From a virus (Duplodnaviria > Caudoviricetes), in the IMG/VR virus record IMGVR_UViG_3300023263_000002, positions 36,946 through 100,945 of that record: a stretch of DNA of 64,000 nucleotides; one strand, given 5' to 3'. Below are positions 1,288 to 33,507 of this stretch, one piece after another. Under the pieces are notes generated by a model. It was given only the letters and a program-made list of their open reading frames with translations. It was not told the DNA's origin and searched no databases. Positions within the stretch are counted from its first letter, which is position 1. Every line of letters starts with the position of its first letter. A program made the translations under genes and the position numbers.

Positions 1288-1518
1288 TTACGACCTTAAG
1301 TTCCATCGTGTGATTGCGACGTCTCTGGTTTGATTAGAAACCATCTTTCCTTCTTCATGCTTGGTCTCTACAGCAGAGCTTGTATGACCGCAGACCGAAC
1401 ATCTCACGAACGTCCGGTCAACTTCTTTCCCGTAGTGCGTATGAGTCGAGATCCTGTTGTTCTTGGCTTTGCACTCCGGACAATCTCGAATGAGTACCGT
1501 CATTGGCGTAAGTTCCAT
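1288..1518 (-). CDS. Lar-like restriction-alleviation Zn-finger protein, copy 2 (likely start 1503)
   Basis: CPEC...FVRCSVCG...AITRWN; paralogue of the adjacent gene. Confidence 0.65.
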   Translation of the reverse strand: MELTPMTVLIRDCPECKAKNNRISTHTHYGKEVDRTFVRCSVCGHTSSAVETKHEEGKMVSNQTRDVAITRWNLRS

Positions 1519-1733
1519 CTTGCTATGGCAGCCAAGGTAACTGACGTGCTCACCTTTTCGCCGTAATTGTGCGGTGTTTCAACTGCCGGACCTGATGCCT
1601 TACATTCGCCGCACTCAACGAATGTACGATCCGGGGTTGGGTAAGGACCGCGCGTACCTTGTAAAGTGATTATCTTCAAGGTTGCGGTGGACGTGCATCC
1701 ACAGAATGGACAGCTTGCTGCTACACTGGTCAT
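1500..1733 (-). CDS. Lar-like restriction-alleviation Zn-finger protein, copy 1
   Basis: CPFCG...FVECGECKASGP...AIARWN, the typical Lar-family pattern. Confidence 0.7.
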   Translation of the reverse strand: MTSVAASCPFCGCTSTATLKIITLQGTRGPYPTPDRTFVECGECKASGPAVETPHNYGEKVSTSVTLAAIARWNLRQ

Positions 1734-2048
1734 CTACTTCTTCTCCTCCTTCATAATCATCATGAGGGTTACTTCCATCGCTGTACCTTCTTCGTCGACA
1801 CCGTCATATTCAGTGCAGGTGCCGCGGATAGGTATCCCGTCAGAGCGAGCAGCGTCGAAAGCCTCCATGATGTGCATCATACAATCGTCCTCCGTCGGTA
1901 CAGTCTTGTAGACAGGCAGCATAACACCTGTATTCGGAAACTGCACCAAGAAGACGAGCAGCCAGACCTTTACCATCGCATTCTCCCTTCCACCTCTGTT
2001 ATCTTGGCATAATGGCAAGAGCCTACTAACGCAAGCCATAAATCCCAA
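1734..2048 (-). CDS. Hypothetical protein with hydrophobic N-terminus (likely start MVKVWLL near 1976)
   Basis: ORF track; purine-rich RBS before the internal ATG. Confidence 0.55.
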   Translation of the reverse strand: MGFMACVSRLLPLCQDNRGGRENAMVKVWLLVFLVQFPNTGVMLPVYKTVPTEDDCMMHIMEAFDAARSDGIPIRGTCTEYDGVDEEGTAMEVTLMMIMKEEKK

Positions 2049-2199
2049 GTATCCAATAAAGCTGTATCTACTTGACCTTCTTCAACCTGAACGGAGTTGG
2101 TCAACCTCGAACCTCGATTGATTCTTCTTCGCGCGAGAAGTATGTCACCTTAACCTAGAATTTATCACCTAAGAAATATCGATCATTTAGGAATCTGTA

Positions 2200-3060
2200 G
2201 GGCTAGAGCCATAGCTTGCCCATCAGGACGAACAGCTATGGCACTCACATCATTTGAGGCTGTGAGGGAAGGTCTCAGATGAGACACGCCATGCAGCGAA
2301 GTAGAGAGGAGATGTATAGAAGGTCTTTTTGTAAGAATACTTCTACAACCCATTCAATCTACATACTGCGCTAGAAGTGTACAACCTGAGTCTAGTCAGG
2401 AATGGTGGGGTTACTCTATCACCTTTACGTACAGCTTGCTCAGAAGCAACGGAGACTGATCCAGCTAAGGATCTGTAGAACGAGCTCTTCTAACAACAAG
2501 TTCTACGTCACGCAGGTTGTAAGTTACCAGAGCCTGCTCCAGGTGTGGTTCTTCTCGAGCTTTTTCCACACTCACTAGTTAGGATTTTTCCTAACGCTTG
2601 TCACGACGATGCCCTTCGTCATCTTTCCTTGTAAGCTCTCGCCTACGGTAGGGGACATTAGGTCCTGGCTATGAGCTGCTCAGATTCGCGTGCATGTGCG
2701 GTTGCGATAAGTGCCAAGTGCGGCACGCATTGAGCCCGGGCAGCTCATATAACATACCGACCGCGTTCTAGGATTTTTTAGGTGGGGGTTTGAAAGCGCG
2801 AAGAATCGCGGTACGCAAGAGCTTCCAAGGCTGCGATGCTGCCCCAGACTCTGCGATAGACCGGAACTATGGACGATCCCCTAGCGATACCGCTGAGCAG
2901 CGATGAGCGTCCAGAGTCGTGCCAGATTCGCGAGCGAGAAAGAAAGACTTCAAACAAAGGAAAACCGGACCTTCATCAACGTAGGCGGGTGCTCGGGGGG
3001 CGTGAGCACTACGTATCTGAAGGTCCGGCGACGCGACGAGCCAGGTTGGGGTACTTGTGG
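2200..3060 (-). ncRNA. Candidate large structured non-coding RNA (alternatively a structured replication origin)
   Basis: About 1 kb with no credible ORF, tiled by more than 12 hairpins. A GAGA-tetraloop stem with a G-U pair pairs fully only on the minus strand. Lies downstream of a leftward promoter. Confidence 0.45.
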
Positions 3061-3070
3061 CCCGTCGATC

Positions 3071-3099
3071 GGTATAAGTGCGTCTAGCCATTAGGTCAA
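3071..3099 (-). promoter_or_regulatory. Leftward sigma70-like promoter
   Basis: Minus strand TTGACC (3099-3094), 17 nt spacer, TATACC (3076-3071). Confidence 0.6.
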
Positions 3100-3110
3100 G
3101 CGGCAAATTA

Positions 3111-3139
3111 TTGACCTATCCTAAAAAAAGGGTTATAGT
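3111..3139 (+). promoter_or_regulatory. Rightward sigma70-like promoter
   Basis: TTGACC-17 nt-TATAGT, upstream of the HTH gene. Confidence 0.75.
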
Positions 3140-3172
3140 GCAAGGATGCGAGAAGTCAACGGAGAACCAACG

Positions 3173-3445
3173 ATGAGTCTAAACAGTACGCAGCTACAGG
3201 CAGAGCTGGATAAACTCCTGACCGTCCACGACATGTGCGACATGTTCAACATCACAGCGATGACCTTGTACACTTGGCGGAAGGATCGCAAGCTGCCAAC
3301 CGTCCAAATCAAGGGTGGTCCGCGTGAGAACATGCGAGCCTCGATTCGCTTCCATCCCGACGACGTAGCGGCATGGGCGAAGACTCAGGGTCTCCAGGCG
3401 AAGGCGTTGCCGAATACTCAGCGGCGCGTGCGCTTGGCGGCATAA
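3173..3445 (+). CDS. Excisionase/MerR-like HTH DNA-binding protein
   Basis: LLTVHDMCDMFNITAMTLYTWRK...IRFHPDDVAAW, an HTH_17-type pattern; GGAGA RBS. Confidence 0.8.
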   Translation: MSLNSTQLQAELDKLLTVHDMCDMFNITAMTLYTWRKDRKLPTVQIKGGPRENMRASIRFHPDDVAAWAKTQGLQAKALPNTQRRVRLAA

Positions 3446-3503: not shown

Positions 3504-3539
3504 AGAGACCCTCGGCTTACCACCGGGGGTCTCTTTTTG
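3504..3539 (+). terminator. Intrinsic terminator
   Basis: AGAGACCCTCGG-loop-CCGGGGGTCTCT followed by a T-run. Confidence 0.8.
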
Positions 3540-23221: not shown

Positions 23222-23686
23222 TTAGGTAGCGGTAACCTCAAGGATCTCGGTATTGATACCGACCATGAACGTCTGCCGGACGATGTTGTTCACCTGGCCG
23301 ACGTTACGGGTCTTTGACATCACCTTTCCGCTGAAGAATAACGTGGTGGGTGATCCACCGAGCGTCAGCTCATCGTTCAGCGTGACTTTGAAGTTGTAAT
23401 CAAAGTCGGTGGCGAACGCAGCAAGGAGGGCTTGCTGGCCCGAATCAGCCGGATCCGATCCGGTGATGATTGTCAGGGTCCCGGCGTTGAATGATCCCTT
23501 GAACTTCCGAGTGCGCCGATCCGCAAGAGCGGTGAACGTCACCTCCTCAGCCGTGTCGCCGAACTCACCGAGATCCTCGACCTCGCCAACTTCGACGTAG
23601 CTGTCAGATTCGTAGTCGATGACACTGTTCGCCTGCCCAGTGGTGCCGATGAACACCCTAGATTCCGCTGCTGTATTAACCGTCAT
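23222..23686 (-). CDS. Major tail tube protein
   Basis: VGEVEDLGEFGD, RTRKFKGSFNAG, D..D.GQ..L; precedes the chaperone. Confidence 0.88.
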   Translation of the reverse strand: MTVNTAAESRVFIGTTGQANSVIDYESDSYVEVGEVEDLGEFGDTAEEVTFTALADRRTRKFKGSFNAGTLTIITGSDPADSGQQALLAAFATDFDYNFKVTLNDELTLGGSPTTLFFSGKVMSKTRNVGQVNNIVRQTFMVGINTEILEVTAT

Positions 23687-23699
23687 AGCACGTTCCTTT

Positions 23700-24959
23700 C
23701 TACGCTGTCTGTAAACGAATTGTTAGTGTGACTCCCCTAGCAATATGTTGGTAATCATCTGTTGGCGCAGGGAAGGGACCAACTACTACGATGTCGATAA
23801 TGTCGTATCCTGACACAGTCAAACTATCGGGATTGCGATGGAATTTATCACGAAGGTAATACCCAAGTTCTTCTACTACGCGATACTGACCATCCTGCTC
23901 ACCGTACGCAATCACGTCACGAGTGATAACCGGTCTCCGAGAAACAAGTGCATCCTCGTTGATGATGCTCGTGTCAGGATTAACAACGATCATAGGGTAT
24001 TCAGCACCCTCAGGAACCGGCCGCCGTGTATGAATAGAAGGCGACATGAATTGACCGAGCCTAGAGGTTATGTATAAATCATCAGCCAATGCAGCATATA
24101 TCGAAGAAGCCAGGTTCAAGGTGGCGCCGCCGCCCACGAGAGTGACAGCCTGTCCTTGTACTGCGACATCAACCGGGTCTACAGCTATTTGTAGATTGAT
24201 AATGTCAATGGTCTGTCCCGCAACTGCCGCTGCTGCTGCTGTTACCGGAATAGGATCTTCAAATAAGTCGATGGTCTGTCCGGCTACTGCTGCTTGAGCG
24301 GCATCGACTCCAACCACGCTCGCAGTAGAGAACGAAGCAACTACTTTTGCCGCGGCGTCATTAAGTAGAGTCGCTGTAATGGTGCGAGGCGTTTCAGCAG
24401 AAACCGCGCTGGCATACGCAGTGCTAAACCTGTTGGAGCCTTCTGCCGCAACGTCAATATCAGAGACCTCAGTAAGCCCTGTCCAAATGACTGTGTTGCC
24501 ATTTCCATCGTAGCTGGATCCAACAACAATGCCATCGGCTGACGTATTTACGCTGACATCAGAAACTCCAAGCGCGGCTGTCTTTGTAGCAAACGCTGAT
24601 GAGCTAGCATCAGGAGAAACAGCGACAGCGACAGCGTGCCGAATACAAACCTGATCATGTGTTAGAACGATATCAACATCTGTCTGGTTTGGATCTGGTA
24701 GGTTGTTCCTCGGCAGGACGAAAATGCCGACGTTAGATCTGACGTTGCCTCCGTCATTCTGACTAAAGAAAACGGCCTGTGTTGCAGCGACGCCGTCTAC
24801 TGAGCACGCCATGGTTGAGGCGTTAGCTATAGTACGAGCGCCAGCCGAAATATACAGGACATCGCTACCGCCATTCGCGCCGATCGCCTGCGCCGCAAAC
24901 GTCGGAGTCGCTGTGTCCGTTGAGCTGGACGCGATTGCGGTCTGTGTGACGCTCGCCAT
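23700..24959 (-). CDS. Tail terminator (DUF3168-like C-terminus) with a ~280 aa Ala/Ser/Thr-rich N-terminal extension
   Basis: C-terminal IYAALADD..PEGAEYPMIVV..LRDKFHR..RGVTLTIRL; located before the tail tube gene. Confidence 0.65.
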   Translation of the reverse strand: MASVTQTAIASSSTDTATPTFAAQAIGANGGSDVLYISAGARTIANASTMACSVDGVAATQAVFFSQNDGGNVRSNVGIFVLPRNNLPDPNQTDVDIVLTHDQVCIRHAVAVAVSPDASSSAFATKTAALGVSDVSVNTSADGIVVGSSYDGNGNTVIWTGLTEVSDIDVAAEGSNRFSTAYASAVSAETPRTITATLLNDAAAKVVASFSTASVVGVDAAQAAVAGQTIDLFEDPIPVTAAAAAVAGQTIDIINLQIAVDPVDVAVQGQAVTLVGGGATLNLASSIYAALADDLYITSRLGQFMSPSIHTRRPVPEGAEYPMIVVNPDTSIINEDALVSRRPVITRDVIAYGEQDGQYRVVEELGYYLRDKFHRNPDSLTVSGYDIIDIVVVGPFPAPTDDYQHIARGVTLTIRLQTA

Positions 24960-31434: not shown

Positions 31435-33507
31435 CTATGGAAGAAGTTCCAAAACAGCTTTGTTACTTGATATCGAATGAACGATAAATTTCGAACCTCG
31501 ATTAAGTAGAACTTCATATTCTCCCTTAACCCTACTTATAGGATTGATAGCTAACGCCGAAGAACCCTTTGGCACCATTATTTCAACTACAAAAGGCTTC
31601 TGATTTGCCCGCGGAAGATACCAATTCGCCGCAAAGTCTCGGCTCATGCTCGTACTAAGGAATGCTTTATCTAGAATAACTATTTGCCCTTCCAATGCAC
31701 CAGAAAAAGTCCTAAGAAATCGATCAGCACCCATACCGCGAAAAACCATGATATCTTCTGTTAGTCGAGTTCTAGAAAAAACATCATCAAGGATTTTAAT
31801 AAACTCTCCCTCGAAATCAGGTAAGGTGGGATCAAGCTGAAGTGGTTTCGAACTCCTCAAACGTTTTTCTAGTAATTTGTTAATCGCCTCGTACTGAGAA
31901 CCCGTATACCTTTGAATGGTTTCGAGTTCAATAGACGTCAATGGTCGTTTTAAACTCTCCTCGTACATCTCCCTAGCGAGTGTGGTTAGTTCCTCCTTTG
32001 TTTTAACAGCGATAAATAGATCTTTATTCTTACCAGATCCCTTTGGCGGTTTCGTTACTGTAGATGGCACACCATAATCGTATTTGGCAGAAGTTGCAAC
32101 CTTTTCGTTTCCGATGGTTTTTATCGAAGTAGATGTAATCCCACGATCCTTTGCGGCGGCTCGAACCACATCAGTGTACTTCTTTGCTGCCTTAGCTTCG
32201 GCCAACTCCAAAGCCTCTGCCGATTTCAAGGCTGCGGCTAGGATCTCGTCTGCCTCAGCTATTTGGGCGGCCTCTACCTTCCTAAGTACGTCAGCCACCT
32301 GAGTATTCAACTGCGTAAAGGCTGTACGAGCTACGTCATTGTCAGCGAAGGTAATGAAGCCATCAGCAAAATCATCAACATGCGCCGTATTGAGATTCTG
32401 GTAAACAGGTGGAGGCGTGGTCGGTCGAAGCGGCGTACGAACTGGCTGCGAGATCGCTGTGCTTTCTCCTGGCGGAAGTATTTTAACCTGAGTTACGCAT
32501 CTGCAGTTGATTACCTCAGCAGCAGGAGCCGACCGATCTCCCGGATACATCAGCTTCGCACCAGACGGACTGACAAAAGGCTCTTCCGCGCCGCGGACCT
32601 GTCTATTCATCGCGAGATGCGTATCGCGCGTGCGCGTATCCATAACGCATCGCCAGGTTCTCTGGATGCGGCCCATCTCCAGATCAACCTTATTGGCCAT
32701 CTGGATCGTGGCTGTATGTCGCGCAGCATTGACTGTGCTCAGCATCTCGGTACGCGCGATAGTCTCCGCACGCATAGTCAACATCCGTTCCTGGTATCGG
32801 CCAACCATTCGTTCAATTTGAGTAGTGGATAACTGCACGCCTTGATCGATAGCCCGGCCGATAGTGCTATCGAACCGGCGATCACGTAAGGTGCGACTAA
32901 GCGCCTCAGAACTACCATTCTGGAGTAGATTGCGGTACTTGTCTACAGCCCCCATCTGGAACTGTGTCAAGCCGATCTTGCTTCGGAACAACCTTGCTGC
33001 CTCGATAGGACTCAAGCCCTGCTGCAATGCCTGTGCTAGAACAGTACGAATCGCCTTCCGCTGCGCATCAGTCATCTCACGAATAAACTGCAACAAGGAG
33101 TTGCGCATCGATCTAGCAGCCTCAGCGCTGCCTGGATCAAATGACAGATCAATGTTCGGGCTCACATCGATCTTCTTGACCTGGTTGATATCCAGTTCGT
33201 GGTAGAGCCAATTGGTTTCGAACTTCCCGGCATTGTTAAATACAGGAACCAGCACACGAGAGAAGTTAGCGATCGCCTGATCCGTTACGTCTACAGCTTG
33301 GATCATTCTTGACTTCGAATAGGCCTCGCCGAATTTACTGGCAACCTCATCAGATCGACATTCATCTAAGAACGTGTCGAATGCATCAATGATCAGACGC
33401 TCCTGCTTCGCCTCGAATGTCACGATGCGTTTAACATCTTCCGGCAAGGCTTTACCAAGCGTGGCGTGCCGGAATCTAACTACATGCGACTGCGGAATAA
33501 ACTGCAT
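31435..33507 (-). CDS. MuF/SPP1 gp7-like head morphogenesis protein with C-terminal ADP-ribosyltransferase domain
   Basis: RAETIARTE, DTRTRDTH, YPGD, INCRC; then YTG..Y..IN, VFRG, FLSTS, GEYEVLL (R-S-E triad). Confidence 0.9.
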   Translation of the reverse strand: MQFIPQSHVVRFRHATLGKALPEDVKRIVTFEAKQERLIIDAFDTFLDECRSDEVASKFGEAYSKSRMIQAVDVTDQAIANFSRVLVPVFNNAGKFETNWLYHELDINQVKKIDVSPNIDLSFDPGSAEAARSMRNSLLQFIREMTDAQRKAIRTVLAQALQQGLSPIEAARLFRSKIGLTQFQMGAVDKYRNLLQNGSSEALSRTLRDRRFDSTIGRAIDQGVQLSTTQIERMVGRYQERMLTMRAETIARTEMLSTVNAARHTATIQMANKVDLEMGRIQRTWRCVMDTRTRDTHLAMNRQVRGAEEPFVSPSGAKLMYPGDRSAPAAEVINCRCVTQVKILPPGESTAISQPVRTPLRPTTPPPVYQNLNTAHVDDFADGFITFADNDVARTAFTQLNTQVADVLRKVEAAQIAEADEILAAALKSAEALELAEAKAAKKYTDVVRAAAKDRGITSTSIKTIGNEKVATSAKYDYGVPSTVTKPPKGSGKNKDLFIAVKTKEELTTLAREMYEESLKRPLTSIELETIQRYTGSQYEAINKLLEKRLRSSKPLQLDPTLPDFEGEFIKILDDVFSRTRLTEDIMVFRGMGADRFLRTFSGALEGQIVILDKAFLSTSMSRDFAANWYLPRANQKPFVVEIMVPKGSSALAINPISRVKGEYEVLLNRGSKFIVHSISSNKAVLELLP

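Follow-up and report, generated by a model that had tools for sequence, protein, structure and literature searches.

A candidate large structured RNA of a new family, conserved behind a predicted early promoter in a lineage of ~100 kb phages

A gap of about 1.2 kb (positions ~1978–3172) in a phage genome, with the leftward early genes on one side and a rightward HTH gene on the other, carries a long series of helices that have been kept by compensatory base change among related phages. Our preferred reading, to which we give a probability of roughly 0.55, is that the product of this gap is a non-coding RNA, ~0.85 kb in length and of a new family, which is transcribed leftward from a promoter-like element, PL1, and works as a stand-alone structured molecule; that it is transcribed, where its transcript ends and that it acts in trans are what we infer from the findings below. 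The window, by which we mean the whole stretch of DNA that was analysed, is 64,000 bp long and corresponds to bases 36946–100945 of a 100,945-bp IMG/VR phage contig with a CheckV completeness of 99%; positions are those of the window unless otherwise indicated. The phage's genes include those for a ribonucleotide reductase, ThyX, a Mu-like portal protein, a tape-measure protein and an SbcC-like ATPase, and its large terminase shares no more than 52% identity with those of cultured phages (Pseudanabaena and Rhizobium phages). To the left of the gap, small leftward genes start at ~1977 with an ATG, and the leftward strand runs on for ~20 kb; to the right, a rightward gene that starts at 3173 encodes an HTH_17 protein of 90 amino acids. 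Two adjacent members of the small leftward set, at 1288–1518 and 1500–1733 (minus strand), encode proteins that resemble the Lar restriction-alleviation zinc finger, with Pfam E values of 3e-4 and 2e-5 that fall below the curated cut-off. A strong intrinsic terminator (3504–3534; a 12-bp stem with 8 G-C pairs and a TTTTT tail) lies directly after the HTH gene, and the next rightward genes therefore need either read-through or promoters of their own.

Relatives of the locus were sought in a collection of 5.8 billion proteins with the HTH protein and then with a profile of its relatives, which yielded nine clusters, and gap versions were taken from the contigs of these nine clusters and from one metagenome pattern scan. 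Ten distinct versions in three clades were obtained (the window, L002, L003, L009, L013, L062, L010, L014, L070 and L067), and every related contig that reaches far enough has, at the same place, a gap of ~1.0–1.3 kb without a reliable gene call. The only real matches to come from the DNA pattern scans were L013/L015/L060, which are a single contig, and L014; three such scans of IMG/VR and one of 185,579 prokaryote genomes produced no further member, only chance matches. Those discarded as chance are L012, where the pattern falls inside a coding gene, all 42 of the 42 genome_contigs matches, and L058, L059, L061, L077 and L078. A blastn search of 50,697 phage records gave no match, and single-protein searches of IMG/VR with two flanking proteins returned no relatives. 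The RNA family looks rare, and its members all seem to belong to a single syntenic lineage of ~100 kb phages.

The region 2200–2815, which a first-pass annotation had put forward as a candidate large structured RNA, folds better than its dinucleotide shuffles on both strands (z of –3.0 on the plus and –4.3 on the minus strand, with none of 20 shuffles as good), and on the minus strand its centroid is nearly the same as its minimum-energy fold. Local z-scores in sliding windows of 200 nt are modest (–0.5 to –3.4) and are equalled by some coding windows; stability alone is therefore weak evidence, and conservation and covariation carry the case. A conserved core at 2343–2678 (minus strand), in which 13 to 16 helices are found according to the alignment used, is the top-scoring nucleotide match when the window is compared with its distant relatives L010 and L070, for which flanks of 3–5 kb on each side were fetched. 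Between the window and L009 the core is 83.6% identical and the HTH gene 67.5%, and in distant relatives the core is conserved better than the flanking genes.

Covariation in the core is abundant. The alignment of all ten core sequences (A8) has 69 pairs and 94.3% of its cells paired, with both-sided change in 33 of the 69 pairs versus 1–10 in slid controls and a covariation score of 0.368 versus at most 0.097; since the ten homologues are all members of a single syntenic lineage of phages, independent covariation events are fewer than these cell counts suggest. RNAalifold analysis of seven core sequences gave 77 pairs with 97.5% of cells paired, and both-sided change occurs in 23 of the 77 versus 0–5 in controls whose 3′ partners had been moved by 1–3 columns. 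In the ten-sequence alignment the count for helix 2475–2506 stems partly from a one-base misregistration of clade 2, and the other helices are clean. Helix 2578–2595, for example, appears as GUUAGGA/UCCUAAC, GCUAGGA/UCCUAGC, GCUGGGA/UCCCAGC and GUGUAG/CUACAC, helix 2605–2620 as GACGA/UCGUC and GCUGA/UCAGC, and the junction-closing helix 2378–2382/2429–2433 as UGUAC/GUACA and CGCAC/GUGCG. The helices are thus maintained by compensatory substitution above controls that preserve relatedness, which is the generic test for a structured non-coding RNA, and the proposal of a large structured RNA holds up well. Every stem that the first-pass annotation had listed within 2200–2815 exists in the sequence in the place it was given, and those at 2208–2242, 2385–2400, 2436–2449, 2458–2473, 2475–2506, 2543–2571, 2578–2595, 2605–2620, 2631–2646, 2653–2665 and 2670–2749 are conserved as helices in the relatives, whereas those at 2272–2285 and 2797–2810 are present only in the window and its nearest relative.

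The core also contains invariant loops, among them AAGGGCA and AACCCCACC, and a hairpin at 2631–2646 (minus strand) that is capped by GAGA; the invariant loops and junctions would be the candidate surface for tertiary contacts or protein binding. In six phages loop 2549–2565 of helix 2543–2571 contains the self-complementary CUCGAG, and in four others an extra hairpin takes the place of the loop (GAAA-capped in L010; the loop was also compared in L003, L010, L014 and L067). Insertions vary at this point, which may also be the site of a kissing-loop contact. Three long-range pairings that came out of a repeat search (2634–2647/2980–2993, 2380–2391/2510–2521 and 2125–2134/2796–2805) were rejected, as none is conserved in relatives.

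Conserved structure extends well beyond the core. A hairpin called P1 that reaches to ~3029 and a terminal hairpin that reaches to 2208 are both kept, and the conserved fold therefore spans ~3029–2208 and runs past 2815; the structured region that was originally delimited at 2200–2815 is real, and its right-hand limit was set too short. In the order of the proposed transcript, P1 would come first, followed by a variable multi-hairpin domain, the strongly conserved core and the two-tier terminal hairpin. P1 itself (2964–3029, minus strand) is a long 5′ hairpin, bulged and with an apical loop rich in C, after which comes a U-rich tract (~2950–2963). All ten homologues have an equivalent hairpin of 65–85 nt with a z of –2.6 to –6.0; their sequences are very different, with compensatory change at 7 of 12 base pairs, a stem base of CCGG/CCGG or CCGAG/CUCGG and, in all ten, a U-rich tail such as UUUUCCUUU, UAUUUUACU or UUCUUACU. 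P1 looks like an attenuator or terminator, with a stem that is far longer than that of a usual terminator, and our terminator scan did not call it. A transcript that starts with P1 would probably have its synthesis attenuated or gated there, and P1 with its U-run would be an attenuator or else a protective cap. The hairpin and its U-run could, however, halt most transcripts ahead of the large structure, which counts against our reading.

P1 is joined to the next domain by a linker, UGUUUGAAGUC ... CGCGAAUCUGGC (2920–2957, minus strand), that is nearly invariant in the ten homologues. Its CUGGC may pair with GCCAG at 2666–2670 and so close the variable domain; the two strands of this predicted 5-bp long-range helix are invariant and so carry no covariation signal. 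The variable domain (2671–2919, minus strand) measures 239–315 nt across homologues and in each forms multiple hairpins, the last of them long (2670–2749 in the window). P1 and this domain are too divergent to be aligned jointly (RNAalifold gave 0 and 10 pairs, respectively), and their sequences were folded singly; within the variable domain, helix 2728–2723/2693–2688 has three compensatory pairs. Downstream of the core lies a 3′ domain (2243–2342, minus strand) whose length is clade-specific, ~65–80 nt shorter in clades 2 and 3, and in which the pyrimidine-rich stretch CCUCUCUACUU (~2299–2313) is conserved in clade 1. The terminal hairpin (2208–2242, minus strand) has a lower stem of CAUAGC/GCUAUG with a conserved GGGCAAGCUAUG on its 3′ side and a variable upper stem; it is present in all ten homologues, where the upper stems differ yet compensate.

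Upstream of P1, a leftward promoter-like element, PL1 (3071–3099, minus strand), consists of a –35 box TTGACC (3099–3094), a 17-nt spacer and a –10 box TATACC (3076–3071), and its predicted start is near 3063. In all ten homologues CTTGACCTAA and the TAT of the –10 box are invariant with no gap between them, and the spacer sequence varies. A sigma-70-type promoter has –35 and –10 hexamers with a 16–18 nt spacer, and A2 and T6 in its –10 box. In PL1 the usual final T of the –10 box is absent from most homologues (by one count from all ten, with C, G or A as the last base), and our consensus promoter scan did not list the element. Back to back with PL1 is PR, the rightward promoter of the HTH gene (TTGACC-17-TATAGT, with a score of 10/12). 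The –35 boxes of the two promoters (together 3092–3139) are the arms of a palindrome, TAGGTCAA-N11-TTGACCTA (3092–3118), whose half-sites are invariant in the ten homologues and which is presumably the operator of the HTH protein. Leftward transcription of the minus strand would thus start at a sigma-70-like promoter that shares an operator with the promoter of the HTH regulator, and because of this shared operator we propose that the RNA is made at the onset of infection and under HTH control. A second promoter within the RNA (TTGAAG ... GAATCT) was considered and rejected because its spacer length varies.

The main rival to a stand-alone RNA, and one that we think rather unlikely, makes the fold a leader that acts in cis on the long leftward early operon. 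Transcription from PL1 would then continue through the fold to the leftward genes, with the fold acting on the polymerase complex that made it or on the message, either by attenuation at P1 with control of read-through or by processive antitermination of the put type across the many structured elements further left. The gap RNA does lie on the same strand as the leftward genes and immediately between them and a predicted early promoter, P1 and its U-rich tail are attenuator-like, the HTH gene is followed by a strong terminator as in antitermination phages, and the leftward strand is ~20 kb long and carries weak hammerhead-like elements. Moreover, neither the terminator scan nor folding of the spacer found a clear intrinsic terminator after the terminal hairpin, so that nothing convincing of this kind separates the RNA from the leftward genes. 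Against a leader, known cis-acting antitermination RNAs such as put and EAR are 65–120 nt long and not 850, and the terminator-like P1 precedes the large fold rather than following it. In addition, the ~150 nt beyond the terminal hairpin, which form the spacer ahead of the first leftward gene (2060–2207, minus strand), are unstructured (z of +1.7 to –0.8 in six homologues) and carry conserved promoter-like and palindromic DNA motifs: a TATAAAT-like box, a palindrome of the CTTCGCGCGAAG type and the inverted repeat TTGACC...GGTCAA. An unstructured spacer with such motifs suggests that the leftward genes have controls of their own.

The palindrome of the CTTCGCGCGAAG type (~2124–2140) occurs in five of the six clade-1 phages, is imperfect in the window and L062, is absent from clades 2 and 3, and probably serves to bind a protein in this spacer. 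The inverted repeat TTGACC-N21-GGTCAA (2072–2104) has the hexamer of the main operator, with both arms TGATCA in L009, and could be a second operator or a hairpin. A sigma-54 reading of TTGGCATAATGGCAA near 2007–2021 was rejected, as it does not fit the consensus spacing.

It seems quite improbable that the hairpins function at the level of DNA, as a replication origin (the alternative that had been offered for this region), a single-strand initiation site or an array of protein-binding palindromes. Regions between divergent promoters are a common location for origins, and G.T wobble pairs can form in single-stranded DNA as well, so that strand bias alone does not exclude such a reading. An origin would be expected to show iterons or DnaA-box arrays beside an AT-rich unwinding element. 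The gap, however, has no iterons; its direct repeats are limited to four two-copy repeats of 10–13 nt, and its GC content is 0.44–0.56 throughout, with no AT-rich block. These points lend the origin interpretation no support, and ~800 nt of helices kept by compensatory change, invariant loops, a GNRA loop and a conserved promoter-like element that reads into the region all argue against any DNA-level role.

We think it very improbable that the functional RNA is instead the plus strand, read rightward toward the HTH gene. Most of the helices are strand-symmetric, RNAalifold energies are similar on the two strands, each of which gains G.U pairs of its own, and a few invariant helix extensions pair as G.U on the plus strand only. 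A bulk count over all predicted pairs likewise gave no strand asymmetry, with as many A.C as G.U; such bulk counts are undecided between the strands, and we therefore based the strand call on curated covarying helices together with their context. On the minus strand 15 curated helices have 27 G.U versus 5 A.C cells. On the minus strand the hairpin at 2631–2646 has, in every clade-1 sequence, one or two G.U pairs, and only there is it capped by GAGA; read as plus-strand RNA, it would contain A.C mismatches next to each other and be closed by UCUC in place of a GNRA tetraloop. One-sided changes in 2429–2433, 2533–2537 and 2208–2242 all go through G.U on the minus strand, and in the junction helix 2453–2458/2355–2360 two covarying pairs flank a G.U shared by all seven aligned sequences. 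Several covarying helices would hold A.C mismatches on the plus strand, where the terminal hairpin, whose G.U pairs exist on the minus strand only, is not even predicted, and the U-rich tract follows P1 on the minus strand alone. Finally, the promoter scan and the alignment found no conserved rightward promoter to the left of the RNA. The minus strand, which had been suggested from the GNRA loop and a G-U pair, is likely to be the RNA strand, with the strand-specific G.U pairs, the GNRA loop and the leftward promoter-like element all in its favour.

The gap does not code for protein, in agreement with the original remark that the region has no credible open reading frame. Stop codons occur in all frames, numbering 8–18 in most of the six frames of each homologue and only 5–6 in three frames, a search for an open reading frame common to the homologues found none, and the variable columns of the core are spread over the three phases as 41/44/40, that is, without codon periodicity. 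A 27-codon frame that starts at an AUG near 2659 was rejected because the AUG is ACG in two clades and indels break the frame. That a poorly annotated spacer simply contains hairpins by chance, or small protein genes that escaped annotation, is hardly credible as an explanation, even with local z-scores within the range of some coding windows and a 92-aa open reading frame that a gene caller placed within the core of one relative, in view of the stops, the lack of periodicity, the conservation of the core above that of neighbouring genes and covariation far above that of controls.

No known family could be assigned to the RNA when it was first noticed, and this is still the case. Rfam 15 gave no match at gathering score in the whole window and none at an E value of up to 10 in 1900–3250, and four homologous loci gave three chance-level matches only (E of 2.9–4.4), which lie outside the RNA or are implausible. 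This covariance-model test thus rules out GOLLD, ROOL, OLE, HEARO, introns, RNase P, 6S RNA and tmRNA; the Rfam 15 families for raiA and for group I and group II introns were likewise without a match, and ARAGORN found no tRNA or tmRNA. To our knowledge, intricately folded bacterial and phage RNAs of more than ~500 nt are few, namely rRNA, RNase P, group I and II introns, OLE, GOLLD, ROOL, HEARO and raiA. Each of these long RNAs is a ribozyme, the core of a ribonucleoprotein, a self-assembling particle or still a puzzle. A search of the literature on large phage RNAs returned only work on GOLLD, ROOL and OLE, and nothing like the gap RNA.

ROOL and GOLLD are large ornate RNAs of phages and prophages that cryo-EM has shown to form homo-oligomeric, RNA-only assemblies (PMC12286853). 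The gap RNA resembles them in its size class (600–850 nt), its many helices and its conserved loops and junctions, and like them is non-coding and phage-borne, with a function that cannot be deduced from its context. It differs from both in that it has no match to either covariance model (E up to 5–10), lies directly downstream of a putative early promoter under operator control, has a terminator-like hairpin as its first element and is known only from one rare lineage of ~100 kb environmental siphophages. Our preferred reading has the gap RNA acting as a folded stand-alone molecule in the manner of ROOL and GOLLD, and not as an antisense RNA or as DNA.

Smaller regulatory RNAs of phages offer parallels of position. 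The put RNA of phage HK022 and EAR are cis-acting antitermination RNAs of ~65–120 nt with two stem-loops. Like them, the gap RNA is structured, has an early phage promoter (here a predicted one) before it and an early operon after it, and faces an opposite early unit that ends in a strong terminator; at ~850 nt and at least 16 helices it is quite unlike them in size and architecture, and we found no sequence or structural likeness to either, a position behind an early promoter being the only trait in common with put. The P4 CI RNA and the c4 RNA of P1/P7, which are ~70–80 nt long, pair with repeated complementary sites in the same leader. These share with the gap RNA a non-coding product in a regulatory region where a repressor gene might be expected and transcription that diverges from the promoter of the regulator (in the gap RNA, from the predicted PL1), whereas the internal complementarities of the gap RNA (pairs I2, I4 and I5) are not conserved in relatives.

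In lambdoid phages a protein repressor is encoded at the position divergent from the Cro regulator. We tentatively suggest, at slightly less than even odds, that here a member of an undescribed class of large (~0.8–0.85 kb) ornate RNAs, made at the onset of infection in a rare lineage of ~100 kb environmental phages, is placed divergent from a Cro-like regulator with which it shares an operator, and that its complex fold points to a ribozyme, a self-assembling RNA particle or a molecule that reprograms host transcription. Large structured RNAs are rare and usually have an elaborate function. That the RNA shares an operator with a Cro-like gene suggests that it takes part in the earliest decisions of an infection, and if it does act on transcription, it would be by far the largest such RNA known in phage. 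A new family that comes with a promoter, a regulator and an early context would be a testable handle on the roles of large phage RNAs, and the alignment of ten homologues and the helix map suffice for a covariance model and for the design of probing, cryo-EM and deletion work.

Two further features were noted away from the gap. Upstream of the window, on the leftward strand of the same contig, are two weak hammerhead-like elements, L076:7133–7207(–) and L076:6238–6319(–) (contig 24132–24206 and 23237–23318). Both are full-length matches to the Rfam type II hammerhead model, at 23.4 and 22.8 bits versus a gathering score of 37 (E of 0.2–0.3), and no hammerhead match in the L076 stretch comes up to the gathering score. 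Within the window, a leftward gene at 31435–33507 (minus strand) encodes a 690-aa protein that combines a Mu F-like head-morphogenesis domain with a C-terminal ADP-ribosyltransferase exoenzyme domain (E of 4e-26), and this protein is possibly an ejected enzyme that modifies the host.
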